Assembly (NCBI GenBank): GCA_965238005.1
Contig: OZ250165.1
Location: 896,001 to 960,000 of the forward strand
DNA: 64,000 bases
Source of the DNA: Longimicrobiales bacterium
GTDB taxonomy: Bacteria; Gemmatimonadota; Gemmatimonadetes; Longimicrobiales; Gaopeijiaceae
Reading direction: 5' to 3'
A program made the position numbers and the translations under genes. Positions 8,605 to 29,332 of the stretch are shown here, in pieces. Positions within the stretch are counted from its first letter, which is position 1; the number at the start of each line of letters is the position of its first letter. The notes below the pieces were generated by a model, which saw only the letters and a list, made by a program, of their open reading frames with translations, did no database searches and had not been told where the DNA came from.

Positions 8605-10857
8605 TCACCTCGGTCCCGACGGCAGATACGTCAAAAAGTGCCGCGCCATGAGCATGCGGACGTGCAGCGACGTGCCCTCCCCTTCGGAGATGCCGTGATT
8701 GCGATTCGGGTAGGTCATGTAATCGAACGTTTTTCCCAGCTCGACCAGCCGGTTGACGAGGAGCTCAACCCCTTGGAACAAGCAGTTCGTTTCTCCGGTG
8801 CCATGGATGATTAAGAGATGCCCGCGTAGTCCTTCCGCATAGTTGATCGGCGAGCTCAGTCGGTATCCTTCGGGATTCTCGGCGGGTGTGCCTAGATAGG
8901 TTCGTTGCCAGCCGTCATAGTACGTCTCGGGAACCGGCTTGGACGCGACGGCGACCCCGACCTTGAATAGGTCTCCCTGCCGGAACAGCGCGTTGAGCGT
9001 ATTCGATCCGCCGCCGCTCCAGCCCCAGATGCCGACCCGGGTCGAATCCACATACGGCCTCATTTGCGCCAGCCGCCGTATCCCTGCCGCCTGGTCTTGT
9101 ACCGCAAGTGGGCCCATCTCGCGAGCCCCCGCTCGTCGCCACGCGGTTCCCTTCGGCGCCGGCGTCCCACGATTGTCGATCGACATCACGAGGTAGCCAG
9201 CGTCGGCCATCGCCCGGTGGAACATCGGGCCCCCGCTGATGTTCCACGCATCTTCGACGGTGGTCCCCCCGTTCTCGCCGTAGATGTACACGATCACGGG
9301 ATACTTCTTCGTGGGGTCGAAATCACGCGGTTTGATCAGCCACGCGTCCATGACCACTCCGCCGCCGATGTCCAGCTTGAGGAATTCGGTCGGGCGAGGA
9401 ATCCAGGTCCTCCGTTTTTCTCGCAGCTCGGCGTTGGATTCAAGTACGCGTACTAGGCGATGCGACGGGAGCTCCACGAGCTCCGTCACGGGCGGTGAGT
9501 CGATCGTCGAGTAGGTGTGAAAGGCCCAGCGCCCGTCCGAAGAAAGCCGGTAGGAGTGCTGTCCCGGCTGATCCGCGGGAGTGACTCGATCCGCCTCTCC
9601 CGTTCCATCCGGCCGGACCTTATACAGATAGTTCTGTGTCGCATTATCGGGTGACGCAGAAAAATACAACCACTCGCCTTTCTGATCGCTCATGGGTTGC
9701 AAGTGGTCGTACGCTCCCCTCGTCAAGCGCGTCTCCTTCCCGTCACGCGAGATGGAGTAGATGTGGCTCCAACCATCCCGGTCCATGTCCACGTACATCC
9801 GGTCGCCGCGGATGACCGGTCGCTGGCGGCGGCCCCAGGGGGCCTCCTGGCGGTAGAGCCGCCTGACGGTCCCCGAGGCCGCGTTCGCGAGAAGAATGTC
9901 TCGCACGACGCTCCCGCGACTGTCCTGAACGATCATGACATGCTTCGAATCGTCCTCCCAGGACCATTCGAAGTTCCAACCCTCGGCTCCGTCCGAGTAC
10001 TCAGGGAGGGACAGCCAGCGGGTCTCGCCGCCCGTCGCGCTCACTATGCCCAGCCGATACGAACCGCCCGGCGCTCCCACACGGCTGTAATACACATAGC
10101 GAACCGTCGGAACGGCCGAGTCTGTATTGTTGAGAAGGGGGATCCTGGGCACTTTGCTGATGTCCGACTGAAGGTATGCGATCTGCTGACCGTCCGGGCT
10201 CCACCGCACACCGGGGGCTTGAGAAGCGCCTTGGACAACCACGAACACCCGCATTCCGTAGAATTTCAGAGAGTCGGCTTTGCCGTCCCTCGTGATCCGC
10301 GTAATCACTTTGGTTCGGACATCCTCTACGACTAGATCCGCGTCGCGCACGTAGGCCACGCGCTGGCCATCGGGTGAGAGGGTGGCGCTCGCCGACCACA
10401 CGCCGGAGGCCACCTGCCGGAGTGAACCTGTCGTGCGATCGAGCAACCAGAGATCGGCGAGGTCGATAGGACGGCCGACGACTGGGCGAGTGTTGGTCTT
10501 GAAGAGCACCCGCTCGGCGTTCTTCGACAGCTCGTACTGCCTGACTTCCAGCGGCTTTGAAGCACCCGGCGGCGTCACCTGCGCGATCGAGACGAAGACG
10601 GTGCGGTTGCCGCTGGAAGGCTCATAATGCACGATCTCCTGGCCAGTGCCTGATGCCGCCGGCTCTAGCACGAGGTAGCCAGAGCCGTCGGGCAACCAAT
10701 TGGCTCGAAAGCCTTTGGCTGTGAACTCGTTCTTCTCGTAGATCGCTCGCAAACGTGCCTCGAGTTCGGCGGGAACCTGTGCCGGAGCGGGCACGGCCGC
10801 CGAAACGAGGAGGAGGTAGGAGAGCAAGGGAGCTCTTGGGAAGCTCGAGGTGATCAT
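8605..10857 (-). CDS. S9B/DPP-IV-like serine hydrolase, duplicate copy A (750 aa)
   Basis: GGAGG RBS before ATG 10857, signal peptide, DPP-IV propeller, GWSGGG, HGTGETN, YPNRNH. Confidence 0.92.
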   Translation of the reverse strand: MITSSFPRAPLLSYLLLVSAAVPAPAQVPAELEARLRAIYEKNEFTAKGFRANWLPDGSGYLVLEPAASGTGQEIVHYEPSSGNRTVFVSIAQVTPPGASKPLEVRQYELSKNAERVLFKTNTRPVVGRPIDLADLWLLDRTTGSLRQVASGVWSASATLSPDGQRVAYVRDADLVVEDVRTKVITRITRDGKADSLKFYGMRVFVVVQGASQAPGVRWSPDGQQIAYLQSDISKVPRIPLLNNTDSAVPTVRYVYYSRVGAPGGSYRLGIVSATGGETRWLSLPEYSDGAEGWNFEWSWEDDSKHVMIVQDSRGSVVRDILLANAASGTVRRLYRQEAPWGRRQRPVIRGDRMYVDMDRDGWSHIYSISRDGKETRLTRGAYDHLQPMSDQKGEWLYFSASPDNATQNYLYKVRPDGTGEADRVTPADQPGQHSYRLSSDGRWAFHTYSTIDSPPVTELVELPSHRLVRVLESNAELREKRRTWIPRPTEFLKLDIGGGVVMDAWLIKPRDFDPTKKYPVIVYIYGENGGTTVEDAWNISGGPMFHRAMADAGYLVMSIDNRGTPAPKGTAWRRAGAREMGPLAVQDQAAGIRRLAQMRPYVDSTRVGIWGWSGGGSNTLNALFRQGDLFKVGVAVASKPVPETYYDGWQRTYLGTPAENPEGYRLSSPINYAEGLRGHLLIIHGTGETNCLFQGVELLVNRLVELGKTFDYMTYPNRNHGISEGEGTSLHVRMLMARHFLTYLPSGPR

Positions 10858-11012
10858 GACATAGCCTCCGGCAATTGCCTCGCGGATCACTGTCCGCCAG
10901 AAGGGAGATGTTCGAGGAAGTACCGCGCGATGAGTCGGCGTACGTGGGGGGTGGACCCGGGGCCTTCCCTCAGCCCCAGGGTGGAGTGTGGCCGGGCTGG
11001 GGTTCGTGTCAT

Positions 11013-13262
11013 TCACCTCGGTCCCGACGGCAGATACGTCAAAAAGTGCCGCGCCATGCGCATGCGGACGTGCAGCGACGTGCCCTCCCCTTCGGAGATG
11101 CCGTGATTGCGATTCGGGTAGGTCATGTAATCGAACGTTTTTCCCAGCTCGACCAGCCGGTTGACGAGGAGCTCAACCCCTTGGAACAAGCAGTTCGTGT
11201 CTCCGGTGCCATGGATGATTAGGAGATGCCCGCGCAGTCCTTCCGCATAGTTGATCGGCGAGCTCAGTCGGTATCCTTCGGGATTCTCGGCGGGTGTGCC
11301 TAGATAGGTTCGTTGCCAGCTGTCATAGTACGTCCTGGGAACCGGCTTGGACGCGACGGCGACCCCGACCTTGAATAGGTCTCCCTGCCGGAACAGCGCG
11401 TTGAGCGTATTCGATCCGCCGCCGCTCCAGCCCCAGATGCCGACCCGGGTCGAATCCACATACGGCCTCATTTGCGCCAGCCGCCGTATCCCTGCCGCCT
11501 GGTCTTGTACCGCAAGTGGGCCCATCTCGCGAGCCCCCGCTCGTCGCCACGCGGTTCCCTTCGGCGCCGGCGTCCCACGATTGTCGATCGACATCACGAG
11601 GTAGCCAGCGTCGGCCATCGCCCGGTGGAACATCGGGCCCCCGCTGATGTTCCACGCATCTTCGACGGTGGTCCCCCCGTTCTCGCCGTAGATGTACACG
11701 ATCACGGGATACTTCTTCGTGGGGTCGAAATCACGCGGTTTGATCAGCCACGCGTCCATGACCACTCCGCCGCCGATGTCCAGCTTGAGGAATTCGGTCG
11801 GGCGAGGAATCCAGGTCCTCCGTTTTTCTCGCAGCTCGGCGTTGGATTCAAGTACGCGTACTAGGCGATGCGACGGGAGCTCCACGAGCTCCGTCACGGG
11901 CGGTGAGTCGATCGTCGAGTAGGTGTGAAAGGCCCAGCGCCCGTCCGAAGAAAGCCGGTAGGAGTGCTGTCCCGGCTGATCCGCGGGAGTGACTCGATCC
12001 GCCTCTCCCGTTCCATCCGGCCGGACCTTATACAGATAGTTCTGTGTCGCATTATCGGGTGACGCAGAAAAATACAACCACTCGCCTTTCTGATCGCTCA
12101 TGGGTTGCAAGTGGTCGTACGCTCCCTTCGTCAAGCGCGTCTCCTTCCCGTCACGCGAGATGGAGTAGATGTGGCTCCAACCATCCCGGTCCATGTCCAC
12201 GTACATCCGGTCGCCGCGGATGACCGGTCGCTGGCCGCGGCCCCAGGGGGCCTCCTGGCGGTAGAGTCGCCTGACGGTCCCCGTGGCCGCGTTCGCGAGA
12301 AGAATGTCTCGCACGACGCTCCCGCGACTGTCCTGAACGATCATGAGATGCTTCGAATCGTCCTCCCAGGACCATCCGAAGCTATAACCGGTGACTCCGT
12401 CCGAGTACTCAGGGAGGGACAGCCAGCGGGTCTCGCCGCCCGTCGCGCTCACTATGCCCAGCCGATACGACTCGCCGGGCGCTCCCACACGGCTGTAATA
12501 CACATAGCGAACCGTCGGAACGGCCGAGTCTGTATTGTTGAGAAGGGGGATCCTGGGCACTTTGCTGATGTCCGACTGAACGTATGCGATCTGCTGACCG
12601 TCCGGGCTCCACCGCACACCGGGGGCTTGAGAAGCGCCTTCGCCCACGAACACCCGCATTCCGTAGAATTTCAGAGAGTCGGCCTGACCGTCCCTCGTGA
12701 TCCGCGTAGTCACCTCGGTTCGGACATCCTCTACGACTAGATCCGCGTCGCGCACGTAGGCCACGCGCTGGCCATCGGGTGAGAGGGTGGCGCTCGCTGA
12801 CCACACGCCGGAGGCCACCTGCCGGAGTGAACCTGTCGTGCGATCGAGCAACCAGAGATCGGCGAGGTCGATAGGACGGCCGACGACCGGGCGAGTGTTG
12901 GTCTTGAAAAGCACCCGCTCGGCGTTCTTCGACAGCTCGTACTGCCTGACTTCCAGCGGCTTTGAAGCACCCGGCGGCGTCACCTGCGCGATCGAGACGA
13001 AGACGGTGCGGTTGCCGCTGGAAGGCTCATAATGCACGATCTCCTGGCCAGTGCCTGATGCCGCCGGCTCTAGCACGAGGTAGCCAGAGCCGTTGGGCAA
13101 CCAATTGGCTCGAAAGCCTTTGGCTGTGAACTCGTTCTTCTCGTAGATCGCTCGCAAACGTGCCTCGAGTTCGGCGGGAACCTGTGCCGGAGCGGGCACG
13201 GCCGCCGAAACGAGGAGGAGGTAGGAGAGCAGGGGAGCTCTTGGGAAGCTCGAGGTGATCAT
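11013..13262 (-). CDS. S9B/DPP-IV-like serine hydrolase, duplicate copy B (749 aa)
   Basis: GGAGG RBS before ATG 13262, GWSGGG, HGTGDTN, YPNRNH. Confidence 0.92.
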   Translation of the reverse strand: MITSSFPRAPLLSYLLLVSAAVPAPAQVPAELEARLRAIYEKNEFTAKGFRANWLPNGSGYLVLEPAASGTGQEIVHYEPSSGNRTVFVSIAQVTPPGASKPLEVRQYELSKNAERVLFKTNTRPVVGRPIDLADLWLLDRTTGSLRQVASGVWSASATLSPDGQRVAYVRDADLVVEDVRTEVTTRITRDGQADSLKFYGMRVFVGEGASQAPGVRWSPDGQQIAYVQSDISKVPRIPLLNNTDSAVPTVRYVYYSRVGAPGESYRLGIVSATGGETRWLSLPEYSDGVTGYSFGWSWEDDSKHLMIVQDSRGSVVRDILLANAATGTVRRLYRQEAPWGRGQRPVIRGDRMYVDMDRDGWSHIYSISRDGKETRLTKGAYDHLQPMSDQKGEWLYFSASPDNATQNYLYKVRPDGTGEADRVTPADQPGQHSYRLSSDGRWAFHTYSTIDSPPVTELVELPSHRLVRVLESNAELREKRRTWIPRPTEFLKLDIGGGVVMDAWLIKPRDFDPTKKYPVIVYIYGENGGTTVEDAWNISGGPMFHRAMADAGYLVMSIDNRGTPAPKGTAWRRAGAREMGPLAVQDQAAGIRRLAQMRPYVDSTRVGIWGWSGGGSNTLNALFRQGDLFKVGVAVASKPVPRTYYDSWQRTYLGTPAENPEGYRLSSPINYAEGLRGHLLIIHGTGDTNCLFQGVELLVNRLVELGKTFDYMTYPNRNHGISEGEGTSLHVRMRMARHFLTYLPSGPR

Positions 13263-13291
13263 GACATAGCCTCCGGCAATCGCTTCGCGGA

Positions 13292-15586
13292 TCACTGTCC
13301 GCCAGGAGGGAGATGTTCGAGGAAGTACCGCGCGATGAGTCGGCGTACGTGGGGGGTGGACCCGGGGCCTTCCCTCAGCCCATGGTTGCGATCGGGGTAC
13401 ACCATGTAGTCGAACGGCTTGCCGAGCTCGACCAGACGATTTACCAGATGCTCGACGTGCTGGAGATGGGTATTCGTCTCTCCCGAGCCGTGCATGATGA
13501 GTAGGCGCCCCTTCAACCCCTCGGCGAAATTAAGGGGGTCCGCCAGGCGGTAGCCCTCGGGATTATCCTCCCGGGTCCTCATGTACCGTTCCTGGAACCC
13601 TGCACTGTACAGATCGGGCCGCGGCTTCGGGGCGACCGCGACGCCCACGTGATACTGGTCCGGCTTGCGAAAGAGTGCGTTCAACGTGTTGGTCCCGCCC
13701 GCGCTCCAGCCCCAGATCCCCACCCGCGAGAGGTCGACGTACGGCCGCGTGCGCCCCAGCTCGCGCAGGCCGGCCGCCTGCTCTTCGGTCGACAGCGGCC
13801 CCATGCTGGGGAAGATAGCCCGGCGCCAGGCCGCACCCTTGGGCGCCGGCGTACCCTGGTTGTCCCACGACACCACCAGATACCCCTCGTCCGCGATTGC
13901 CTGATGGAAGAGGTGATTGCCCTGCTGGGCACCCCAAGCGTTCTCCACCACGGCGTCCGCCGGCTCGGCGTAGATGAAGACGATCACAGGGTATTTCTTG
14001 CCCGCATCGAAGTCCCGGGGCTTGATCATCAGCGCGTCCATCACGATACCGTTGCCGATGTCCAGCGTGAAGAACTCGGTCGGGTTTATGAACCACGCTT
14101 TCATCTTCTCGCGAAGCGCCGCATTGTCCTCCAGCACGCGCACGACGCGGTGGGAGGGGAGCTCGACGAGGTCGGTCACCGGCGGCGTGTCGAAGGTCGA
14201 ATAGCTATGGAAGGCGTACCGACCGTTGGGCGACGGAACATACTGGTGGAACCCCGAGGCCGTCGCCGGCGTCACCCGTTCGGCCTTTCCGCTGCCGTCC
14301 AACGGGACGCGATAGAGATGGGACTCAGTGGCATTGTCGGGCGAGGCGTGATAGTAGAACCAGCCTCCCGTCTCGTCGACCATGCCGATGGGACGCCCGC
14401 GGCCGGCGGTTTGGATATCGTGCGGCCCGGGCGTCAGCAGCGTCTGCGTCTTGCCGTCACGCGACAGGAGAAATGCGTGCCGCCAGCCGTCTCGCTCGCT
14501 GATCAGCAGGAACCTCTTGCCATCGCGTAGCGGCTCGAGCGTGAGACGCACCCACGCCGAGTCGCTTTCGTGGTACATCGGGGTGACCGCACTGGTCCGT
14601 ACGTTCACGTAGAAAGCGCTGAACACGTCCCGTCCCCGAGATTGCTGCTCCAGCAGCAGCTCGTCGGAACTACCTGCCCAACTCGCGCTGAGGTAATACG
14701 TACCCGGTTTTCCCGGAACGGCGATCCACTGGGTCGGGCCGCCATCCGCGTTCACCACGCCCACCCGTGTCGTCGCGATTGGGGTGCCCACCTTGGCGTA
14801 ACGGGTGTCTCTCACCACCGGATACGTTGCCTCAGTAAATTTGACGATCGGGAACCTCCCGACGCTCCGTTGGTCTCGCTGCGTGTAAGCGACCTTCTGC
14901 CCGTCAGGACTCCAGTAACCAGTATTCGTGACGCTATCCGGTAGCGCATCCCGCGTGAGCACCACGTGTCGCTCAGTGTCGAGATCGTACACGTACAGGT
15001 TGCCCCCCCTCACGTAGAGGAGGTGCCGCCCATCGGGGGAAAGACCCCCCGACAGATCCCCAGACCCGCTACACGACTCGGCGTCGGAGACGAGCTTCCG
15101 AAGGGTGTGTGCCCTGCGGTCCAGCAGCCAGCAATCGCCCCCAGTGCCACCCCCGGGCAGCGGGCGGGTGTTCGAACGAAAGAGCATGCGCCCTCCGTCG
15201 GCCGAGAGGGCATAATCTTCGATGGTGAGCGGCTGGGAGGTACCCGCCGGCACAAGATCCGAAGCCGACACGAGTGTGCTGCGCTCTCCCGTCGCGGCAT
15301 CGTACTGCACTAGCTCTCTTGACCGGTCTGCGCCGAGCTCGAGGGCCAGGTAACCGGAGCCATCTGGGAGCCACCGCAAGTCAACCAAACGCCCCCGAGG
15401 CATGATCTGTTCGGCCTCGAGCTCATTCGTCGTATAAAGGGAATGGATCCGCGCTTCCAACGCCGCCGGCAGCTCCGCGCTACGCACGGCCTGCCGCGTG
15501 GCGGCGTCTGGCCCGCAACCAGCAACGACAGCACACAGCGCCAGCGTGGTCACGGTCACCGTGGACTTGTGGACATCGGTGGTCAT
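13292..15586 (-). CDS. S9B/DPP-IV-like serine hydrolase C, predicted lipoprotein
   Basis: GGAGG RBS before ATG 15586, lipobox VAGC, GWSAGG, HGSGETN, YPDRNH. Confidence 0.9.
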   Translation of the reverse strand: MTTDVHKSTVTVTTLALCAVVAGCGPDAATRQAVRSAELPAALEARIHSLYTTNELEAEQIMPRGRLVDLRWLPDGSGYLALELGADRSRELVQYDAATGERSTLVSASDLVPAGTSQPLTIEDYALSADGGRMLFRSNTRPLPGGGTGGDCWLLDRRAHTLRKLVSDAESCSGSGDLSGGLSPDGRHLLYVRGGNLYVYDLDTERHVVLTRDALPDSVTNTGYWSPDGQKVAYTQRDQRSVGRFPIVKFTEATYPVVRDTRYAKVGTPIATTRVGVVNADGGPTQWIAVPGKPGTYYLSASWAGSSDELLLEQQSRGRDVFSAFYVNVRTSAVTPMYHESDSAWVRLTLEPLRDGKRFLLISERDGWRHAFLLSRDGKTQTLLTPGPHDIQTAGRGRPIGMVDETGGWFYYHASPDNATESHLYRVPLDGSGKAERVTPATASGFHQYVPSPNGRYAFHSYSTFDTPPVTDLVELPSHRVVRVLEDNAALREKMKAWFINPTEFFTLDIGNGIVMDALMIKPRDFDAGKKYPVIVFIYAEPADAVVENAWGAQQGNHLFHQAIADEGYLVVSWDNQGTPAPKGAAWRRAIFPSMGPLSTEEQAAGLRELGRTRPYVDLSRVGIWGWSAGGTNTLNALFRKPDQYHVGVAVAPKPRPDLYSAGFQERYMRTREDNPEGYRLADPLNFAEGLKGRLLIMHGSGETNTHLQHVEHLVNRLVELGKPFDYMVYPDRNHGLREGPGSTPHVRRLIARYFLEHLPPGGQ

Positions 15587-15816
15587 CTCGCCTCCAGAGA
15601 AATTGGTCTCCTGGATATGCGCCCCGAAATCTGAACCGGTTTCGGGGCCGCTCCTCATAGTGACACGTCATCTGCGCATCCGCCACCCGGCCGAGCTCCA
15701 GGAGGTCCTGAGCCTCCAGTAGCAAGGAGCGATTCTCCACATTGAAGCGGGCCCGGAAGGACTCACTACGAAATCTGGGGCGGCGGACGAGCTCTTGGTG
15801 GAGCCGGGTCAAGAGG

Positions 15817-16040
15817 TCACCCGCGGTCCCGATGGTGCCCCCAGGTGAGGCGGGTCCTCTCCTTGGTCTCCGTATCCACGGCCTAGATGGATCCGTGCTA
15901 GGCGTTGGCCTCCCGATCCATACGGGTCACCACGAAGGCCACCCGTCGTCCATCGGGATGGATCTGGGGCTCCCGAACCTCTTGGATTGCGAACAGATTC
16001 TCCGGCCTGACGGCGACGGAACTGCCCGGTCCAGATTCCG
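15817..16040 (-). pseudogene. N-terminal remnant of an S9C/acylaminoacyl-peptidase-like gene
   Basis: Reads VRPENLFAIQEVREPQIHPDGRRVAFVVTRMDREANA*HGSI*AVDTETKERTRLTWG. In-frame TAGs at 15898-15900 and 15883-15885 fall where Y and W are expected; homology then stops. Confidence 0.7.
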
Positions 16041-16101
16041 GCTGCAACGCCTTGAGCTATGGCTACCATGTAGAGTGGAACGTACGCGATCCGAGAGCGA
16101 T

Positions 16102-16125
16102 CCTTCCTTTGCACCTTCCTTTGCA
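16102..16125. repeat. Perfect 12-bp tandem repeat (ccttcctttgca x2) in the divergent intergenic region
   Basis: Directly visible in the sequence. Confidence 0.8.
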
Positions 16126-16263
16126 TCCAATTGCGTTCCCGTTCGGTCGAGGCGATTCTTGAGATCCATGGGTCTCGATTTCGGATGGCGCGCTCTCCAT
16201 AAACGGCGATGAGTGACAGAATTCGGGCACCTTCAAGGATCTCTGAGGCTCGAGGGGAGAACG

Positions 16264-18648
16264 ATGAATCGAAACAAGAGTTCCTGGTGGACCTGGCTCG
16301 CCATGGCATTCGTGCTCGTTCCCGTAGCGGCGGGAGCGCAGGGGACGCGCGCCGACTACCAGCGCGCCGAGCAGTTCCTGTCGCCGAACGTCGACGAGCT
16401 GGTGCTGAACGAGAGCGTCAATCCGGAATGGATCGGCGAGAGCGATCGGTTCTGGTACCGACGGCAGCTGCCTGACGGCAAGCTATTCCTCGTCGTCGAC
16501 GCCGATCGCGCGACCCGAGAGCCCGCATTCGATCACGGGCGACTGGCGAGCGCCCTGTCGCAGGCCACCGGCACAACGTTCGAGGCCGACAACTTGCCCT
16601 TCGAGACGTTCGAGCTCGGCGAGGAAGTTCGGCTGGGCGGCGACGCCCGCGGCTCGATCGAGCTGACGGCTGACGAGCTTGCGTACCGCTGCGATCTACA
16701 GAGCTACGCCTGCGAGCCAGCCGAAGGACGGCGCGGGGAACGCGGCGGCGGACGGGGCGGAGCCGGCTTCGGCGGCCAACCAAGACTCGACCGCCCCTCC
16801 CCCGACGGCAAGTGGGTGGCATTCCACCGCGATCACAACCTCTGGGTCCGCTCCACCGAGTCGGGAGAAGAGATCCAACTCAGCGACGACGGCGAGGCGG
16901 CCAACGACTACATGGAGTCGCTGCCGTCGCCGCGCAACATGGTGGCGGCACAGACCGAGCACGTCGAGATGCCGGTCGCGGCGACCTGGTCGCCGGACTC
17001 CCGCAAGATCATCTCGTACCGGCTCGACCGCCGTTCGGCGCGGACCTTCACGGTGGTCCAAGCGGTGCCAGAGAACCAGGTGAGGCCGATCTCCTACACC
17101 TACCACTACGCCCTGCCGGGCGAGGTGGGCATCACCCACGCCGAGCCGGTCGTCTTCGACGTCTACAAGAGGATCAAGGTCGCGGTCGAGACGCCGCCAG
17201 TCGACCTCCTCTACTACCCGCTGCTGCTCGATGACCGCGAAGGCCCGCGCTTCACCTGGTTCGAAGACGGCGAGCGCTTCTATTTCCGACGCCAGGAGCG
17301 CGGCTACCAGATGAGCGAGATCGTTGAGGTCGATGCGGCGACGGGGAAGACGCGCGCCCTCGTTCACGAGCGGCTCGAGCCACACATCAATAGCTGGAGC
17401 CACGTCTGGCGCGTGCTCGGCGACGGCGCCGAGGTGCTGTGGTCCTCCGAACGCGACGGCTGGAACCACCTCTACCTCTACGACGGCGTGACGGGAGAGG
17501 TGAAGCGGCAGCTGACGAGCGGCAAGTGGGTCGTCCGGGATCTGGCCCGCGTCGACGAGGAGTCTCGCGCTGTCTACTTCATGGCCGGCGGCCGCGAGGC
17601 CGGCCGCGATCCCTATCTCCGGCACCTTTACCGGGTAGGCATGGACGGCGGCGAGGTCACCCTTCTGACCCCGGAGAACGCCGAGCACGCGGTAGACTTC
17701 TCGTTCAGCGGGCGCTTTTTCGTCGACACCTACTCGCGCGCCGACACCGTGCCCGTCTCGGTGCTGCGCCGCAGCGACGACGGCGAGGTCGTCATGGAGC
17801 TCGAGAAGGCCGACATCGAGCGCCTCCTGGCGACCGGGTGGAAGTGGCCGGAGCCCTTCAAGGGGAAGGCGCGTGACGGGCAAACCGACATCTACGGCAT
17901 CATCTGGCGGCCGTCGAACCTCGATCCGTCCCAGAAGTACCCCGTTGTCGAGCTGATCTACACCGGTCCGCACGGCTCCTTCGTGCCCAAGACCTTCCGC
18001 GCGTACCGCAACATGTCGCAGGCGATCGCCGAACTGGGCTTCATCTCGGTTCAAATCGACGGCCTGGGCACGAACCATCGAGGGAAGGAGTTCGGCGACT
18101 TCTCCTACGAGAACCTCGGCGACAGCGGCATCCCCGACCACATCGCTCTGATGCGACGGATGGCCGAGGAATATCCCTACATCGACCTCGACCGAGTCGG
18201 CATCTGGGGCGGTTCGGCCGGCGGCTACGGCTCGACGCACGCCATCTTGATGCATCCGGACTTCTACAAGGTCGCGGTCTCGACCTCCGGCAATCACGAC
18301 CACCGGATGGACAAGGCGAGCTGGAACGAGATGTGGATGGGGTTCCCGCTCGGCGACCACTACATCCAGCAGAGCAACGTAACCAACGCCCACAGGCTCG
18401 AGGGCAAGCTGTTCCTGGCCCACGGCGAGCTCGACGACAACGTGCCGGTCTCGTCGACCCTGCAGGTCGTCGATGCCCTCATCAAGGCGAACAAGGACTT
18501 CGACCTGCTGATCATGCCGGGTCGCTTCCACGGCCTGGGCGGCCCGTACTTCGACCGCAAGCGTTGGGACTATTTCGTCGAGCACCTGCTCGGGGTCGAG
18601 CCGCCCGCCGGATACGAGATCGGCGCCGGCAACGGCGCCTCGCGGTGA
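16264..18648 (+). CDS. S9B/DPP-IV-like serine hydrolase D
   Basis: GAGGGGAG RBS, signal peptide (AGA-Q), YTGP, GGSAGG, HGELDDNV, PGRFH. Confidence 0.92.
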   Translation: MNRNKSSWWTWLAMAFVLVPVAAGAQGTRADYQRAEQFLSPNVDELVLNESVNPEWIGESDRFWYRRQLPDGKLFLVVDADRATREPAFDHGRLASALSQATGTTFEADNLPFETFELGEEVRLGGDARGSIELTADELAYRCDLQSYACEPAEGRRGERGGGRGGAGFGGQPRLDRPSPDGKWVAFHRDHNLWVRSTESGEEIQLSDDGEAANDYMESLPSPRNMVAAQTEHVEMPVAATWSPDSRKIISYRLDRRSARTFTVVQAVPENQVRPISYTYHYALPGEVGITHAEPVVFDVYKRIKVAVETPPVDLLYYPLLLDDREGPRFTWFEDGERFYFRRQERGYQMSEIVEVDAATGKTRALVHERLEPHINSWSHVWRVLGDGAEVLWSSERDGWNHLYLYDGVTGEVKRQLTSGKWVVRDLARVDEESRAVYFMAGGREAGRDPYLRHLYRVGMDGGEVTLLTPENAEHAVDFSFSGRFFVDTYSRADTVPVSVLRRSDDGEVVMELEKADIERLLATGWKWPEPFKGKARDGQTDIYGIIWRPSNLDPSQKYPVVELIYTGPHGSFVPKTFRAYRNMSQAIAELGFISVQIDGLGTNHRGKEFGDFSYENLGDSGIPDHIALMRRMAEEYPYIDLDRVGIWGGSAGGYGSTHAILMHPDFYKVAVSTSGNHDHRMDKASWNEMWMGFPLGDHYIQQSNVTNAHRLEGKLFLAHGELDDNVPVSSTLQVVDALIKANKDFDLLIMPGRFHGLGGPYFDRKRWDYFVEHLLGVEPPAGYEIGAGNGASR

Positions 18649-18677
18649 GCCCTCGTTGCGGCCTTGGGTTCAGCACG

Positions 18678-20972
18678 TCAGTTCATTGTCATCTTCACCC
18701 TCGGCCCGGGAGGCATGAACCTGTGTAAGAAGTCGGTTCGCAGGTTGTACAAGTGATCCTGCGTATTTCGACCTACTCTCAATCCATGGTTGCGGTTGGG
18801 ATATACCATCATGCTGAACTGCTTCTCGTGGGCGACTAATTCATTGACCAGAGATTCAAAACTCTGGTAATGCACGTTCGAGTCTCCGCTACCGTGAATG
18901 ATGAGCAAATTGCCTTCGAGGCGATGTGCCCAGGTTATCGGCGAGCCGTTTTCGTAGCCCTCCATATTCTCGTCGATGAGTCCCATAAAACGTTCTTGAT
19001 AGCCGGGATGGTAAAACCGCTGGTGGCTCACAAACGAGGACGGCATGGCGAGCTTGTACAGATCCGGGTACCGAAAGATGAGATTGAGGCTCATCTGGCC
19101 TCCACCGCTGTGTCCGTAGATCCCGACTCTTTCGGGGTCCAAGTATGGGGTGGTGGCGAGGATCTCCGTTGTGGCGGCGGCGTGGTCCTTGGCCGCTAAG
19201 ATTCCGAGCTGACGGTGAATACTCTTGCGCCAAATGCGACTTCTGGGAGCCGAGGTACCCCGAGGGTCGACACTCATCACAACGTATCCCTGCTGCGTGA
19301 GCATCAGATGCCACAGGTATCTCGTGCCGGCCCATGAGTCCAACACGGTCTGTCCGGCAGGCTCTCCGTAGATGTAAAAAAACAGCGGATACTTCTGTTG
19401 TGGATCAAAATCCGGTGGCTTGATGGTAAACGCGTCCAACTCCAATCCGTCCCCAATATCCACGCGGAAAAATTCCGTGGGACTCTTCTCGAGCTCGGCC
19501 AACTTTTGGCGAAGGTCGGTGTTGTCCTCGAGCACCCTCGCGGAGCGGTGATCCGGAATGCGAATCAGATCGACCTCCGGCGGGGTGTCTTTCGTCGAGA
19601 AGGTGTGGATGGCCCAATTGAAATCAGGCGACACCTGATAGCCATGGGTGCCGGGGGATTCCATCGGAGTGATCCGTTCGGAAGTCCCGCTACCGTCCAG
19701 CGGTACCCGGAACAAGAAACGCTGTGTCGCGTTGTCCGGCGACGCCATGTAGTAGAGCCACCCTTCTTCTTCATCTATTCCCTGAATCACGATGACGTCG
19801 AACGGGCCCGGCGTGAGCAAACCCAACTCCTGCCCCGTGCGTGAGTACAAGTACACGTGCGACCACCCGTCACGTTCACTCACAAACGTGAACTTCTCAC
19901 CACCGTCGAGCCAATAGATGTTGTTCGGCTCGACCCAGGCGCTGTCTGTTTCGACGAGGATCGACCGGACGGCACCCTCTGGAACATCCGCCAGCAACAC
20001 CCGCAGAGTGTTCTGACGTCGGTTCATGATTTGCAACACCAATTCACTGGAACTGGCCGCCCAATCCATCCGCCACAGATAGTCTTCGTGAGGATCTGCC
20101 GGTAGATCCAACCAGCTCGTCTCTCCTCCGCCGGAGGCGACAACGCCCACCCGGAACGAGGCCATCTTCTGTCCCACTTTTACATAGGGAAACGATACGA
20201 TCTCAGGATAGAGGGTCTCGGTGTTGTTGATCATGTAGAAGTCCGGAACGTCGCTCCAGTCCGACTGCACATAAACGACGAGTTTGCCGTCCGGACTCCA
20301 GGCGTATCCACCCTTGCCCGCAATCAGGTCTCCGTATCGCCTGTTGAGCATGGAATTGCTGGCGGATTTGATTCTCCCGTTGAACAGCCGCTCCGCCCCG
20401 TCCGTCGTCAACCGGATGATCTCGAATGACGTAAGGTCTTCCACATAGATGTCATTGTCTTTGACGTAACTGACGCGACGCCCCTCCGGGGAGAACCTGG
20501 CAGTCTGCAACGATTGGGGGGCCGCATCGCGTCCAAGCTTGTGCCAGTTCCATCCCAGGAGGTCGAGGACCCAGTAGTCCTGTGCTGCACTGCCTCGGAC
20601 CACCTGTTTGAGATTGGTGGATATGAGAAGTTTGGATCCGTTAGGGGACCAGGAATAACTCTCGATCTCCATCGGTGATGACTCGCCCGGCAGGATCAGT
20701 CTCCACGCCGGAACCGCCACCACCTTCGCGCCGGTCTCCGCGTCGTACCTCACCACATCTCTCGCGCCGTCGTTAGTATCCGATGCTTCCAAAAGGGTGT
20801 AACTGGCCCCACCCGCCGACCACACCACGGGCCCGAATGACTTGGCCCGGAACCCTGAACTCAAGATTCTCTCTACGGTCAGCAGTGAAGAGTCGTCTTG
20901 CTGAGCAAGGGCCGGAAAACGTGGCACTGCCAGAACGGTTATTGCCAGTACCGTTATTGCCAGATTTCTCAT
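18678..20972 (-). CDS. S9B/DPP-IV-like serine hydrolase E
   Basis: GGAGG RBS before ATG 20972, YGEP, GHSGGG, HGSGDSNVH, YPNRNH. The signal peptide contains a 15-bp duplication (LAITV x2). Confidence 0.92.
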   Translation of the reverse strand: MRNLAITVLAITVLAVPRFPALAQQDDSSLLTVERILSSGFRAKSFGPVVWSAGGASYTLLEASDTNDGARDVVRYDAETGAKVVAVPAWRLILPGESSPMEIESYSWSPNGSKLLISTNLKQVVRGSAAQDYWVLDLLGWNWHKLGRDAAPQSLQTARFSPEGRRVSYVKDNDIYVEDLTSFEIIRLTTDGAERLFNGRIKSASNSMLNRRYGDLIAGKGGYAWSPDGKLVVYVQSDWSDVPDFYMINNTETLYPEIVSFPYVKVGQKMASFRVGVVASGGGETSWLDLPADPHEDYLWRMDWAASSSELVLQIMNRRQNTLRVLLADVPEGAVRSILVETDSAWVEPNNIYWLDGGEKFTFVSERDGWSHVYLYSRTGQELGLLTPGPFDVIVIQGIDEEEGWLYYMASPDNATQRFLFRVPLDGSGTSERITPMESPGTHGYQVSPDFNWAIHTFSTKDTPPEVDLIRIPDHRSARVLEDNTDLRQKLAELEKSPTEFFRVDIGDGLELDAFTIKPPDFDPQQKYPLFFYIYGEPAGQTVLDSWAGTRYLWHLMLTQQGYVVMSVDPRGTSAPRSRIWRKSIHRQLGILAAKDHAAATTEILATTPYLDPERVGIYGHSGGGQMSLNLIFRYPDLYKLAMPSSFVSHQRFYHPGYQERFMGLIDENMEGYENGSPITWAHRLEGNLLIIHGSGDSNVHYQSFESLVNELVAHEKQFSMMVYPNRNHGLRVGRNTQDHLYNLRTDFLHRFMPPGPRVKMTMN

Positions 20973-21025
20973 TCTGTCCTCCATGTTGTCAGCCGAGCAG
21001 TCGAATTCGGACCTAGCGCAACGCC

Positions 21026-23362
21026 TCACTCCAATGCGCTCGCAGCCTCGCGAATCATCGTGATGTCGGCGACGAAGATGCTGCGACCGTGTGTGCCTAT
21101 GACGAGTTCTGGATCCCGCGGATGAACTACCAGATCGTAAACGGCTGCCGTGGGCAGATCGGCACAAAGCGAGTGCCAGGTGGCACCGCCATCGACACTC
21201 GCGTACACGCCAAGGTCGGTACCCACGTAGAGAATCCGTGCATCGGTGGGATCTTCAGCGATGACGTTTATCGGTTCGGATGGCATATTCGCCGCGATCG
21301 ACACCCAGGATTCGCCGAAATCAGTCGAGCGATATACGTACTTTTCGAAGTCGTCGTCGCGGTACCCTGTGAAGGACACATACACGGTACGAAGATCGTA
21401 CCGTGACGCCGCTACTCGGCTCACCCACTTCTCCGGCAAGCCACCATCGATCCTGGCCCAGGTTGCACCGTCGTCGCGCGTTACGTGGATGTAACCGTCA
21501 TCCGCTCCGGTGTAGAGCAGGCCTCGGCGCAAAGGCGATTCGGATACCGTCGTCAGAGTTCCGAAGGGAACGTTGCCCTGGGTCGATGGCTGGCTCGTGA
21601 GATCCGGACTGATGGCGCTCCAAGAGTCGCCGCGGTCCAACGACTTGAAGAGGATGTTCGCACCGTAATAGAGGGTCCGAGGATCGTAGTACGAAATGAA
21701 GAACGGCGTCATCCAATTCGAGCGGAGCGCGGGTTGGCCTTCCTCCGCCTGCGGCCGGATTCGGGGTGCCGTGTCCGCAGCCATTTCCTTCCGTCGCAGG
21801 TCTCCAAACTGATGCTCGTAATAGATCACGTCGGGATTGGTCGGATCGCGGTAGGTGAAGTAGGAATCCCCACCACCCCACCGGTCGAGATAGACATGCC
21901 TCCAAGGATCGTCAACGTCCCACTCGACGACGTGGGTGCTCGGGCCCCAGAGCGCCGCGTCGTCTTGTGTGCCGCCGTAAATATTGTACGGCCACTCCAT
22001 ATCCACCGAGACCGCGTAGAACTCACCGATCGGCAGGTTATTGAGGTGAAGCCACGACTCCCCTCGGTCGTAGGAGACGTGGAGACCTCCGTCGTTACCG
22101 AGGATCATATGATCGGGGTCTTGCGGATTGATCCAAAGCTCGTGCTGGTCGAGGTGAAGCACGCGGGAGCCGTGCGGTAAGAGGTGCACCAGCGTGCCCT
22201 CTATCTGCCGGTACGTCCTGCCGCCGTTCTCCGACGCCCAGAACCGGTTGCCAGGTACGTACACCACGTCCTCGTTGTCCGGTGCGATCTTGATGATGCA
22301 GAAGTCGTAGCCCGCCGGGACGCGCTCCTCGTTCACCTTCCTCCACGTGGCCCCGCGGTCGTCGGAACGATAGACCTCACCGCCGATCCTTCTCGGTCCC
22401 CGTTCATCCCGGGTAGTGTCCGGATCGGGGAGGTGGTTGTCGAGAAGTGCGTACACCACGTTCGGGTTCGACGGCGCAACGTCAATAGCGATACGACCCA
22501 CGCCCTCACCTGTGGGGAAACCGTTGGTGAGCTTCTCCCATGAGTTACCACCGTCGGTCGTCTTGTAGATGCCGCTCCCCTCCCCGCTCGCCGTATGCCC
22601 CCAGGCCTTTCTCGTCCGTTGCCACGCCGTGGCGTAGAGGGTGTTGGGATCGGAGGGATCCATGACGAGATCCACAACGCCGACACGATCGCTTATGTAG
22701 AGGATTTTTTCCCAGGTGTCTCCACCGTCGACGGTCTTGTAGAGACCTCTTTCCTCGTTGAACGTGTAGAGGTGACCGATCGCCGCGACGTACACGATGT
22801 CGGGGTCGCGCGGGTGGATCAGTACTTGTCCGATGTGGTGCGTGTCCGCGAGCCCCATGTGCTGCCACGTTTCACCGGCGTCGACGGACTTGAACACACC
22901 GGTTCCCGCATAGGAGCTGCGGGCCATGAGCACTTCACCAGTTCCGACCCAGACGACGTTCGGGTCCGACTCCGCCACAGCCACGTCGCCGATCGCAAAC
23001 GTCGACTGCTTCTCGAAGATCGGCGTCCACGTCGTGCCGTTGGTCACCGTCTTCCAGAGGTTCCCCGATCCCACTCCGACATAGAACGTGGAGGTCTCAC
23101 CGGCAGGTACGGCTATGCTTTCGATCCGACCCCCCTGCTTTTGCGGTCCGACTGCCCGCCATTCGAGATCGGCGAAGGGTGATTCGCGTTCCATTCGCTG
23201 GTGCTGCTCCCAGGAGCGCAGCCGAGTCGTTACATCGGTTGGGTTCTCACGACCGCGAAGTGTCTGACGCGAAGCGTCGATTTGATCGGCCGAGAGAGGG
23301 ACGGACAGAAGCGCGAGCGCGGCCATTACCAAGAACGTCGTTGCTGAGCTTCTCAATTTCAT
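21026..23362 (-). CDS. VPS10/sortilin-like BNR beta-propeller (glycosyl-hydrolase-like) secreted protein
   Basis: GGAGG RBS, WRAVGP..GGRI, VWVGTGE, many SxDxGxTW boxes, LVIGTHGRSI. Confidence 0.88.
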   Translation of the reverse strand: MKLRSSATTFLVMAALALLSVPLSADQIDASRQTLRGRENPTDVTTRLRSWEQHQRMERESPFADLEWRAVGPQKQGGRIESIAVPAGETSTFYVGVGSGNLWKTVTNGTTWTPIFEKQSTFAIGDVAVAESDPNVVWVGTGEVLMARSSYAGTGVFKSVDAGETWQHMGLADTHHIGQVLIHPRDPDIVYVAAIGHLYTFNEERGLYKTVDGGDTWEKILYISDRVGVVDLVMDPSDPNTLYATAWQRTRKAWGHTASGEGSGIYKTTDGGNSWEKLTNGFPTGEGVGRIAIDVAPSNPNVVYALLDNHLPDPDTTRDERGPRRIGGEVYRSDDRGATWRKVNEERVPAGYDFCIIKIAPDNEDVVYVPGNRFWASENGGRTYRQIEGTLVHLLPHGSRVLHLDQHELWINPQDPDHMILGNDGGLHVSYDRGESWLHLNNLPIGEFYAVSVDMEWPYNIYGGTQDDAALWGPSTHVVEWDVDDPWRHVYLDRWGGGDSYFTYRDPTNPDVIYYEHQFGDLRRKEMAADTAPRIRPQAEEGQPALRSNWMTPFFISYYDPRTLYYGANILFKSLDRGDSWSAISPDLTSQPSTQGNVPFGTLTTVSESPLRRGLLYTGADDGYIHVTRDDGATWARIDGGLPEKWVSRVAASRYDLRTVYVSFTGYRDDDFEKYVYRSTDFGESWVSIAANMPSEPINVIAEDPTDARILYVGTDLGVYASVDGGATWHSLCADLPTAAVYDLVVHPRDPELVIGTHGRSIFVADITMIREAASALE

Positions 23363-27487: not shown

Positions 27488-28959
27488 CTACGAGGCATAG
27501 TCCTCCAAAATCAGTTGCGCCCGGTTCTCTTCGGAGACGCGCTGGCGGTACGGGCGAGCCGCGAACCAGAATCCGATCCCCGTGGCGCTGAGCGCCCCGA
27601 GGATCAGCCATTCAAGAGGCCAGACGAGTACGCTCGGACTGTTAGGAATGAGCATCACGGCCAGGATAAACAGCGAGCCGGCGGCCGCCACGTAGGCAAG
27701 CGCGTTACCGCCGGGCATCCTGTACGGACGTTCCATGTGTGGGAACTTCTTGCGCAGTTGGACGAGCGAGAGCGCCACCCCCAGGAACGCCAGCGCGATA
27801 CAAAACGAGCCGACGTCGACAAACGCGATGATCGCCCCTCGCCCGAGGCACGCGGAGAGGAACGTTACCAGACCGCTGAACAGGACCGCATTTGCGGGGG
27901 TCCCGTATCGAGGATGGGTCTGGCCGAACGATTCGTGGATGATGTGGGCGCGCCCTAGAGAAAAGAGCACACGGGAGCCCGCCAGGAAGAAGCCGTTCCA
28001 ACTCGTGAGCAGGCCGATCAACCCGGCGACGAGCACGAGGTTGACAAGCAGCCGGGACTCGAACGCCGACTCGAACGCCGCGGCTGTGGGCAGGTCTTCG
28101 CCCACGATGCTCCGCCAGGGCGCCGTCATACCTGCTCCGAGGATGATCGCAATATAGAAAATCGTCGAGCCGACGATGGCGAGGATGACGTAAAGGCCGA
28201 GCCGATGGAGGGGCGAGTTTTCTCGGCGCTCCTCGGCCGCCTGGGGAATCGTGTCGAAGCCGACGTACCAGAATGGAACGTCACGAAGACGGCGAGCATG
28301 CCCCCCAGGGCGCCCCTCAGGCCGCTACTCCCGGGAGATCTGTCCCCGAAATAGGGGGCCAGGTTGCCGATCTCGCCGCTGGCGATGCCCGAGACTACAA
28401 AAAAGACGGCGCAGAGCAGGAAAAGGGCCGTCAGCGCGATCTGGACCCGCAAGGCGATCGCCACGCCGAAATAGTTGATCGCGGTGATGAAGCCAGTAAA
28501 GAAGAGGGCCAGCAGTAGGTGCGATGCGTAGACCGTCGAGTCCGCGATCTCGTAGAGCGGAAGAACGTCGATCTGCGGGACCAAGAACGAGAGGACCAAC
28601 CCTACCGAAATGGCTTCGAATGCCGAGACGGACAGATAGCCGAAAGCCAAGAACCATCCGATGACGAAGGCCCTGGAGGTGTCATAGGCCTTATAGGCGT
28701 ATGCCACCTCTCCGCCGGTCACCGGAAGCATGGGTGTGACCTCGGCGTAACAGAGCCCGATGACCAGCATGAGCGTGCCGCCCAGCGTAAACGCAAGCAT
28801 CGCCCCGACCGGGCCGGCTTGCTCGAACCAGCCGCCCAAGGCGGTGATCCAACCGACGCCGATGATCGAGCCGAAAGCGAGCGCGAAAAAACCGAAGCCG
28901 CTGATCGCCCGTTTCAGCTCCGGGCGCGCGGTGGATACCTCTGTGGAATCGGTGGGCAT
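27488..28959 (-). pseudogene. APC-family amino acid permease with a single 1-bp-deletion frameshift near 28280
   Basis: FGSIIGVGW and YAEVTPMLPVTGGE. Restoring one base gives VFVT(V)PFWYVGFDTIPQAAEE, which runs in frame into ORF 27488-28129. Confidence 0.85.
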
Positions 28960-29332
28960 GAAACCCTGCTCAATGCTCCCGGCAACGTCGTCATGTCCGC
29001 GGACCGGGGTGACGACGGGAGGAGGTCCTCGGAAAGAACGATCATGTCGGCCAGCTTGCCCGGCTCGAGTCCGAAGTAACCGGGCTAGCTCCGGCAAGGA
29101 TAGTAGCCCCAGGGGCCACCCAAACTCCACTCTTGGGGGGAATTAGTCAGGAGATGATTGAGCGCATCCGCGTGACTATTCCTAAAGGGCCGGCTGGCCA
29201 CCGTGGACGAGATCGACTGGATTGCGGAAAAGCTCCGATACCCCGACGGAGGATTGATTTGAGAGAGTGGTTGCTCTATACCTTCGGCGATGCCCGCTGG
29301 TCTGAAATTGCCACCTTCGATGTGAGGTTCGT

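Follow-up and report, generated by a model that had tools for sequence, protein, structure and literature searches.

Five S9B peptidase genes of a Longimicrobiales bacterium lack the Glu-Glu pair of DPP4 and belong to four old subfamilies

A stretch of 64,000 nucleotides from a Longimicrobiales genome (GCA_965238005.1, contig OZ250165.1, positions 896,001 to 960,000; hereafter the window) carries five large open reading frames (ORFs), named A to E, at window positions 8605-21167. Each encodes a DPPIV_N domain (PF00930; E 2e-47 to 7e-70) and a Peptidase_S9 domain (PF00326; E 9e-34 to 1e-41), and the Pfam cut-offs for both are passed by all five alike. A to E keep the nucleophile serine, the histidine, the oxyanion tyrosine, the equivalent of Asn710 and a catalytic acid. 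The residues that form the acidic pocket for the substrate's free N-terminal ammonium in DPP4, namely Glu205 and Glu206 on the blade-4 helix together with Asp663, are lost, and because of this loss the five enzymes should cleave peptides without counting two residues from the N-terminus. Our reading, to which we give a probability of about 0.65, is that A to E are exported S9B peptidases of four old subfamilies that have no DPP4 amine clamp and would not measure off a dipeptide from a free N-terminus. They are probably active peptidases, judging from their sequences, and are unlikely to be classical X-Pro dipeptidyl peptidases. An earlier note on this DNA had regarded them as one diversifying set of non-canonical S9B hydrolases; the predicted non-canonical character is borne out by the combination of the fold and intact catalytic residues with a missing N-terminus anchor.

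Results

The Glu-Glu pair is absent from all five enzymes

The segment that corresponds to the Glu-Glu helix was placed by HMMER alignment against solved DPP4 structures and by MAFFT alignment against the two paralogs of this genome that carry DWVYEEEF. The pair is missing from this segment throughout: C has a deletion there, A, B and E have other residues in its place, and D has Glu-His. The deletion in C is a 15-residue gap that corresponds exactly to 'vlngatdwvyeeefg' of the Porphyromonas gingivalis enzyme (PgDPP4, 5olj) in the HMMER alignment. In D, Thr-Glu232-His233 faces Asp-Glu208-Glu209 of PmDAP IV, one glutamate being kept, and Glu232 also faces Glu205 ('HQREFG') of prolyl tripeptidyl peptidase (PTP) in HMMER; the segment of B holds a single glutamate (VGEG). 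The earlier note had claimed that all five enzymes lack the Glu-Glu anchor, and every string that it quoted was found opposite the DPP4 helix by both methods.

The reading frames of A to E are all intact. Sec signal peptides are suggested by the N-termini of A, B, D and E, and a lipobox (VAGC) by that of C (...LCAVVAGC). Identity to A is 97% for B, 50% for C, 37% for E and 25% for D. The best solved-structure matches by sequence are bacterial DPP4s (E, 4.1e-98 to 5olj; C, 5.5e-78; B, 4.7e-74 to 2ecf), and no solved structure nearer to C than the canonical DPP4s was found with HMMER. None of A to E reached the cut-off of an NCBIfam equivalog, the best matches, Dpp5 and lasso-peptide isopeptidase, lying far below theirs, and a query of the ESM Atlas with C returned merely generic 'S9 family peptidase' and 'prolyl tripeptidyl peptidase family' clusters.

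Catalytic residues and active-site signatures

The catalytic serine and histidine are present in all five enzymes, and the catalytic acid is aspartate in B, D and E and glutamate in A and C. From the glutamate at the catalytic Asp position we propose a putative Ser-His-Glu triad for A and C. The motif GWSYGG is found in none of the five; as the earlier note had stated, the residue after the nucleophile is Gly (A, B, E) or Ala (C, D). The same note had taken this residue as a sign of non-canonical forms, a view that has to be given up, as Gly also follows the serine in the genome's two canonical paralogs (GWSGGG) and in 40/40 sampled canonical homologs, and PmDAP IV, a true DPP4, has Asn614 after its nucleophile according to PMC5807507. 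Because canonical homologs carry Gly too, GWSYGG is not discriminating and Gly or Ala is no mark of the forms without Glu-Glu.

Signatures were derived from a joint alignment of 144 sequences (40 canonical, 20 E-type, 40 C-type, 4 A/B-type and 40 D-type), in which the human DPP4 position numbers stand for the presumed equivalent sites of the motifs. The positions compared are those listed in bioRxiv 10.1101/2022.07.25.501481. Ser630, His740, the oxyanion residue Tyr547 and Asn710 are invariant in every group, and the residues at positions 631, 656, 659, 662, 663, 666, 708, 709 and 711 form an invariant set particular to each subfamily (Table 1). The idea that the loop is the element that changes therefore falls short, nine other active-site positions being set subfamily by subfamily as well.

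Table 1. Residues at nine active-site positions (human DPP4 numbering) in five groups of S9B sequences
Group	631	656	659	662	663	666	708	709	711
Canonical	G	V	Q	Y	D	Y	D	D	V
E-type	G	V	Q	Y	H	Y	D	S	V
C-type	G	K	P	Y	N	F	E	T	T
A/B-type	G	K	P	Y	Y	W	D or E	T	C
D-type	A	N/C	H/N	D	K	W	D	E	V

The loss of Asp663 goes along with every loss of the Glu-Glu pair in this alignment. At position 663 the canonical sequences have Asp (40/40), the E-type mostly His (19/20), the C-type mostly Asn (36/40), the A/B-type Tyr (4/4) and the D-type Lys (40/40); the genes themselves carry Tyr (A, B), Ser (C), Lys (D) and His (E) there, so that Asp663 is lost in all five. Lys656, Glu708 and Thr711 are each found in 40/40 C-type sequences and Asp662 in 40/40 D-type sequences. 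In the S1 pocket (positions 656, 659, 662, 666 and 711) only E agrees with the canonical paralogs, at V, Q, Y, Y and V; the pocket reads K, P, Y, W and C in A and B, K, P, Y, F and T in C, and N, H, D, W and V in D.

We infer activity, register and P1 preference of the five enzymes from these residues. With its canonical S1 pocket (Val656, Gln659, Tyr662, Tyr666, Val711), E would cleave after Pro or Ala, with another N-terminal register or none. In C and its lineage-specific offshoot A/B, in which the helix is deleted or replaced and S1 is lined by Lys656, Pro659, Phe or Trp666 and Thr or Cys711, the S2 side would be open. D, with a PTP-like fold, one glutamate and a polar S1 (Asp662, Lys663), would possibly be an exopeptidase with another register and without specificity for proline. 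The role of all five would be periplasmic or extracellular peptide breakdown for amino-acid nutrition in a Longimicrobiales genus whose S9B genes have multiplied.

Predicted structures of D and E

AlphaFold2 models were made for D and E, and structural matches were sought with Foldseek. The model of E has a mean predicted local distance difference test (pLDDT) of 91.3, with the helix of its replaced loop (RRYGDL, residues 211-216) in a block of pLDDT 75-80, and its top structural match is PgDPP4 5olj, at template modelling (TM) scores of 0.86/0.94. The model of D (mean pLDDT 90.3) has a confident short helix, PRNMVAA, ahead of Gln-Thr-Glu232-His233, and its top match is the prolyl tripeptidyl aminopeptidase 2z3z (E 1.4e-51, TM 0.66/0.80); the top five matches of D are all PTP entries (E 1.4e-51 to 1.1e-49, target-normalised TM 0.79-0.80). 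A Gly/Arg-rich stretch of D (RGERGGGRGGAGFGG, window 16746) is modelled with pLDDT under 50. At the same position a contig of DNA run X2 has a 15-nt insertion, a strain-level length difference in the disordered linker of D.

Four subfamilies with homologs in several phyla

A to E are four old, uncharacterised S9B subfamilies (A/B, C, D and E) and not one diversifying set. The subfamilies are 24-50% identical to one another, and three of the four are conserved across phyla, each with its own version of the segment, at 47-67% identity. The single set proposed in the earlier note is thus replaced by four lineages.

For each of B, D and E, 120 homologs were listed, and the following counts hold among the matches listed. 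The homologs of E comprise 93 canonical sequences, 20 sequences (E included) that carry NGxxKxCNxSM followed by a variable, often basic tail, and a third type with a short DGDW-G deletion form. The loop of A and B is shared by only two homologs of B, P0270 (97%) and P0271 (84%). GETNTH occurs exactly in 113/120 homologs of B, one of the 120 being canonical, and deletion of the helix (SNGRAVWSPDG-like) together with the S1 helix PQPHLYNAWFQEIYMR is typical of the GETNTH homologs, a group that includes C; source names among the homologs of B include Aminicenantaceae, Tepidisphaeraceae, Bacteroidales and Nealsonbacteria. From the D list, 119 sequences were aligned together with D, and they have the motifs YDY..LPSP..M..QGTE, GHSAGG, GNHDHRMDKAxWNExWMG and HGDxDENVP in common. 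The pair aligned with Glu-His of D is Glu-Asp in 36/119 of them and Glu-Glu in 13/119. Among the cluster representatives (50% identity) nearest to B, 110/124 have Glu-Glu in the segment and 14/124 do not, the 124 being those of at least 650 aa among 150 listed.

What stands out most at the locus is the 'GETNTH' clade with its putative Ser-His-Glu triad. Its records are labelled Gemmatimonadota, Aminicenantes, Planctomycetes and Bacteroidales, and it combines deletion of the anchoring helix, replacement of the catalytic Asp by Glu, and Lys656 in the S1 pocket.

The variability of the segment was expressed as mean pair identity and compared with windows of the same width along the protein (Table 2). 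Since identity is low among the 19 paralogs of the genome and high among canonical homologs, segment variation lies mainly between old subfamilies. After the loss of Glu-Glu function the segment is constrained below average, and relaxation and tuning fit the variability data equally. The earlier note had called this segment hypervariable; that description stands among the 19 paralogs, where segment identity is far below the mean, and fails within subfamilies, where the segment is not uniquely so.

Table 2. Mean pair identity of the segment opposite the Glu-Glu helix and of same-width protein windows
Sequences	Segment identity	Window mean	Windows less conserved than the segment
94 canonical homologs	0.89	0.68	98.9%
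19 paralogs of the genome	0.10	0.38	0.3%
E-type	0.41	0.55	13%
C-type	0.12	0.55	4%
D-type	0.29	0.46	21%

Paralog expansion in the genome

The single-contig 4.84-Mb genome holds 19 strong PF00930 paralogs, 17 of which lack Glu-Glu. DWVYEEEF is present in only two (C1:3232355-3234667 and C1:315601-318210). In a tree of the 19, the D clade has three members and the E clade four, next to the canonical pair and a clade of ten without Glu-Glu that includes A, B and C. At E <= 1e-20, PF00930 has 19 matches here, 12 in a genome of the same genus and 0-5 in 29 other relatives; these are numbers of matches and not exact copy numbers, scoring having been limited to 46 candidates in many genomes. The preprint 10.1101/2024.09.22.614393 reports S9 homologs to be denser in Gemmatimonadota than in any other phylum, at about 19 per genome in four genomes, and since the phylum is reported as the densest, a genome rich in S9 enzymes is expected here. 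What the earlier note had put forward as an undescribed system is, accordingly, a paralog cluster inside a genome-wide expansion of 19 copies.

Many of the 19 paralogs are near-identical to one another. A gene-sized copy that matches E at 100% over 2,491 bp is found at C1:1531224-1533714 (locus L031:6304-8718), where it is flanked by genes for Mutator/IS256-family transposases, one intact and one split, with genes for an alpha/beta hydrolase and an AMP-binding enzyme beside it. A copy of C, 98.7% identical, lies at C1:1647861-1650335 (L032:6363-8735), directly upstream of a gene for an M24 aminopeptidase P (AMP_N and Peptidase_M24), which is another type of proline-specific peptidase. A second S9B cluster, at C1:3232355-3240562 (L033), consists of a canonical DWVYEEEF gene followed by two copies without Glu-Glu that are about 95% identical to each other, with two small ORFs lacking a Pfam match between and beside these genes and a DUF885 gene after them.

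Recent duplication of A and B

A and B differ at 34 of 760 codons, 12 of them synonymous and 22 non-synonymous or indel. Their sole indel is one codon inside the Glu-Glu segment, as the earlier note had observed. Since the sister species, with the same D-C-B order, has a single A/B gene (L001), the tandem duplication is recent and confined to this genome. At the differing sites, each copy has about ten replacements that are derived when set against the ortholog of the sister species. VVVQ of A is derived, given VGEG in B, L001/P0270 and P0271, and the catalytic acid toggles, being Glu in A and L001/P0270 and Asp in B and P0271. The 56 residues (of 760) near active-site motifs (segment, S1 helix, acid motif) account for seven of the 22 codons with a non-synonymous or indel difference, a clustering with binomial p 0.0007 by codons and 0.013 by events (5/20) in windows that were picked post hoc.

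The ratio of non-synonymous to synonymous rates (dN/dS, NG86) is 0.55 between A and B, 0.28-0.67 for the L001 orthologs (0.48 for the neighbouring BNR gene and 0.67 for C) and 0.6-1.5 for other recent paralog pairs. Exceptional positive selection on A and B finds no support, as orthologs of neighbouring genes span a range that includes their value. A programmed mechanism of loop hypervariation, by a cassette or by mutagenesis, is likewise unsupported, A and B being separated by one complex 3-nt indel and neighbouring substitutions, with the form in A derived. Two genes of 62-63% identity to B (L009, L010) are C-type genes with stops in the extracted sequence and were left out of the A/B-family comparison. 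In the sister species, about 1.1 kb between the single A/B gene and the BNR gene (L001:8354-9442) has no counterpart in the window.

Discussion

Comparison with characterised S9B enzymes

A to E have the two-domain architecture and fold of the bacterial DPP4s (5olj from P. gingivalis, 7y4f from B. thetaiotaomicron, 2ecf from S. maltophilia and 5yp1, the DAP IV of P. mexicana). They retain the Ser, His, oxyanion Tyr and Asn710 of these enzymes, and E the S1 residues of the canonical paralogs as well, but they differ from them in having neither the Glu-Glu helix motif nor Asp663, in the Glu that stands for the catalytic Asp in A and C, and in the remodelled S1 pocket of A, B, C and D. According to PMC5807507, DPP4-type enzymes require the double-Glu helix for exopeptidase activity, and Ala657 of FAP, in place of Asp663, weakens the acidic N-terminus pocket and favours endopeptidase activity. 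FAP, like A to E, is without Asp663, but it keeps Glu203-Glu204, a pair that A to E have lost too.

The nearest characterised precedent for A to E is prolyl tripeptidyl peptidase together with BT3254. PTP-A (2d5l/2z3z) and BT3254 are S9B members that are likewise without the double Glu and are not dipeptidyl peptidases; BT3254, from Bacteroides, is described in bioRxiv 10.1101/2022.07.25.501481 as a prolyl tri-aminopeptidase that still needs a free N-terminus. PTP-A is the nearest fold for D only; the fold of E is nearer to DPP4, and for A, B, C and E alike DPP4 is a closer relative than PTP. Where PTP-A anchors its substrate with Glu205 and Glu636, D has Glu opposite Glu205 and Lys at Glu636, and A, B, C and E have neither. 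The Tyr-Tyr proline pocket of PTP-A corresponds to Asp662/Trp666 in D, at 24% identity in the Foldseek alignment. DPP6 and DPP10, which are among the solved relatives of E, are cases in which the S9B fold has departed from DPP4 function, being reportedly without peptidase activity; A to E, in contrast, keep the nucleophile Ser. In an incomplete literature search we found no paper on S9B clades without Glu-Glu, PTP and BT3254 aside, and an equally incomplete search gave neither a Ser-Glu-His triad in the prolyl oligopeptidase family nor a description of a 'GETNTH' clade.

Weighing of alternative explanations

The assignment of A to E as peptidases without the DPP4 amine clamp has to be set against several points that weigh on the other side. 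The positional equivalence within the replaced loops is uncertain, and for the loop of E the alignment is ambiguous, HMMER setting Arg211/Arg212 and MAFFT Ser207/Met208 opposite the Glu residues. Another acidic side chain may reach the amine site (Glu232 of D, the Glu in VGEG of B, or Asp215 of E), and the D-type family may still anchor the N-terminus, given its Glu-Asp and Glu-Glu members. Relaxed constraint would also fit the high dN/dS of close copies. Additionally, transcription of A to E is only weakly hinted at: assembled contigs from RNA libraries of two further studies cover parts of the genes at 95-99% identity, and these contigs may be DNA carry-over.

One alternative is that A to E are still N-terminal di- or tripeptidyl exopeptidases whose substrate amine is held by other residues, in the manner of PTP with Glu205 and Glu636. 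Glu232 of D stands opposite PTP Glu205 and PmDAP IV Glu208, PTP is the best structural match of D, an acidic pair occurs in 49/119 D-type sequences, and BT3254 shows that a free N-terminus can be required where the double Glu is missing (bioRxiv 10.1101/2022.07.25.501481). The position of Glu636, which is that of DPP4 Asp663, is Lys in D and His, Ser and Tyr in E, C and A/B, however, C has no helix at all, and Tyr662, a substrate contact in DPP4, is Asp in the D-type; we therefore consider such an exopeptidase set improbable. The proposal of the earlier note, in which the loop that succeeds Glu-Glu would be a swappable specificity cassette of one diversifying set, directed at N-blocked, acidic or non-peptide amide or ester substrates, is to our minds no more probable. 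It would account for a segment that is the least conserved among the 19 paralogs and sits at the 13th, 4th and 21st conservation percentile in the E-, C- and D-types, for the variable, often basic loop tail of the E-type, and for the placing of the A/B indel and of the seven clustered changes. It is at odds with the division of the five genes into four old subfamilies and with the conservation across phyla of the very parts of the segment that define them (the C-type deletion, LPSP..M..GTE of the D-type and NGxxKxCNxSM of the E-type); moreover, many other active-site positions change with the loop, the dN/dS of A and B is unexceptional, and low conservation after the loss of Glu-Glu fits plain relaxation equally well.

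Another alternative is that A to E are decaying or non-enzymatic duplicates, comparable to the dead DPP6 and DPP10 or to relaxed paralogs nearing loss, and the high dN/dS of recent copies (0.55-1.5) and the many near-identical duplicates are in keeping with this; yet all five frames are intact, each of the five has Ser, His, the acid, the oxyanion Tyr and Asn710, residues that do not vary within its subfamily, the subfamilies are kept at 47-67% identity across several phyla, and the RNA-library contigs add a weak further point, so that decay is hardly credible. Hydrolysis of non-peptide esters or amides, in an esterase, lactonase or polyester-hydrolase role, is also very unlikely. Glutamate serves as the catalytic acid in some esterases and lipases as well, and the catalytic domains have weak matches to BD-FAE, DLH, esterase and lactonase models, but these matches lie far under the family cut-offs and reflect the common alpha/beta-hydrolase fold, and both the eight-bladed DPPIV_N propeller and the peptidase and amino-acid genes nearby speak for peptides. 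A bolder proposal concerns the GETNTH clade alone, that is C, seven more paralogs and the A/B offshoot, as a new specificity class of S9 enzymes, a post-acidic or otherwise non-prolyl endo- or oligopeptidase with Ser-His-Glu; the genus-specific burst to 19 S9B paralogs would then be recent adaptive tuning of a repertoire for harvesting peptides. Recent tuning is suggested there because near-identical copies differ at positions that line the active site; we nevertheless regard the proposal as rather doubtful.

Under the reading that we prefer, of four subfamilies without the amine clamp, whole conserved S9B branches lack every acidic residue of the amine pocket, and one large branch has Glu as its acid. 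Characterisation of these branches would correct many annotations, add to the specificities known for the S9B fold, and give insight into the use of S9 peptidases by Gemmatimonadota. The cluster offers a compact test set: its four subfamilies lie side by side, canonical paralogs are present elsewhere in the genome, and A and B differ naturally in having Glu or Asp as the acid.

Feature coordinates and genomic context

The coordinates of the genes and of their diagnostic sites are collected in Table 3.

Table 3. Genes A to E and their active-site features in the window; start codons are the likely ATGs
Feature	Position	Strand	Basis or remark
ORF A, full open frame	8605..11016	-	open up to GTG at 11016
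Gene A, A/B-type S9B peptidase	8605..10857	-	750 aa from ATG 10857 (MITSS); DPPIV_N 3.7e-47, Peptidase_S9 4.9e-37
ORF B, full open frame	11013..13295	-	
Gene B, A/B-type S9B peptidase	11013..13262	-	749 aa from ATG 13262; DPPIV_N 2.2e-47, Peptidase_S9 1e-39
ORF C, full open frame	13292..15658	-	also open from ATG at 15658
Gene C, 'GETNTH'-clade S9B peptidase	13292..15586	-	ATG 15586; Pfam and clade motifs
ORF D, full open frame	16213..18648	+	
Gene D, D-type S9B peptidase	16264..18648	+	794 aa from ATG 16264; Pfam
ORF E, full open frame	18678..21167	-	
Gene E, E-type S9B peptidase	18678..20972	-	764 aa from ATG 20972; DPPIV_N 6.9e-70
Nucleophile motif A, GWSGGG	9007..9024	-	alignment
Nucleophile motif B, GWSGGG	11415..11432	-	alignment
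Nucleophile motif C, GWSAGG	13694..13711	-	alignment
Nucleophile motif D, GGSAGG	18208..18225	+	alignment
Nucleophile motif E, GHSGGG	19098..19115	-	alignment
Acid motif A, GTGETNC, Glu at catalytic Asp position	8782..8802	-	codon 700 GAA in A, GAC in B
Acid motif C, GSGETNT, Glu at catalytic Asp position	13469..13489	-	'gsgetnthlq' aligned to 'gsaddnvhlq'
Segment A, FYGMRVFVVVQGASQ, replaces Glu-Glu helix	10219..10263	-	HMMER/MAFFT alignment
Segment B, FYGMRVFVGEGASQ, replaces Glu-Glu helix	12627..12668	-	HMMER/MAFFT alignment
Site of helix deletion in C, VTNTGYWSPDG	14900..14932	-	HMMER/MAFFT alignment
Loop D, NDYMESLPSPRNMVAAQTEH, predicted short helix PRNMVAA, then Glu232-His233	16903..16962	+	alignment, AlphaFold2
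Loop E, NGRIKSASNSMLNRRYGD, predicted short helix RRYGDL, residues 211-216	20328..20381	-	alignment, AlphaFold2

In related genomes, a D-type gene (33-55% identical to D) comes directly after a C-type gene, in the same orientation, at eight loci (L007, L010, L011, L017, L018, L021, L023 and L025), and the two types are neighbours further apart at two more (L012, L022). A same-strand D-type gene adjoins the C-type gene at about 10 of 28 Gemmatimonadota-type loci that have one, the genomes being related and the loci not independent; the adjacency may represent a recurrent pairing of the two subfamilies in Longimicrobiales and Gemmatimonadota.

The region is present in assembled contigs of two DNA runs from two studies. 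In contigs of both runs the loop of A has a form shorter by 3 nt, which may be the B copy aligned to A, and in run X2 the loop of E lies in the gap between two contigs; for these reasons, polymorphism of the loops in public runs was dropped as a candidate.

The window is rich in genes for exported hydrolases and amino-acid functions, with an S15 PepX fragment, PD40-amidohydrolase fusions, BNR/sortilin proteins, an amidase, amidohydrolases and a Met-zincin. An amino-acid permease is split at 27488-29130 on the minus strand into adjacent ORFs in different frames, 28126-29130 covering profile positions 5-206 and 27488-28129 positions 277-422, which is either a frameshifted gene or an assembly error. 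Two further genes of the window have dispersed duplicates elsewhere in the genome: the amidohydrolase gene at 40626-42110 is 92% identical to genome positions 4494980-4496464, and the DUF4953 Met-zincin gene at 56223-58041 is 81.5% identical to 722594-724412.

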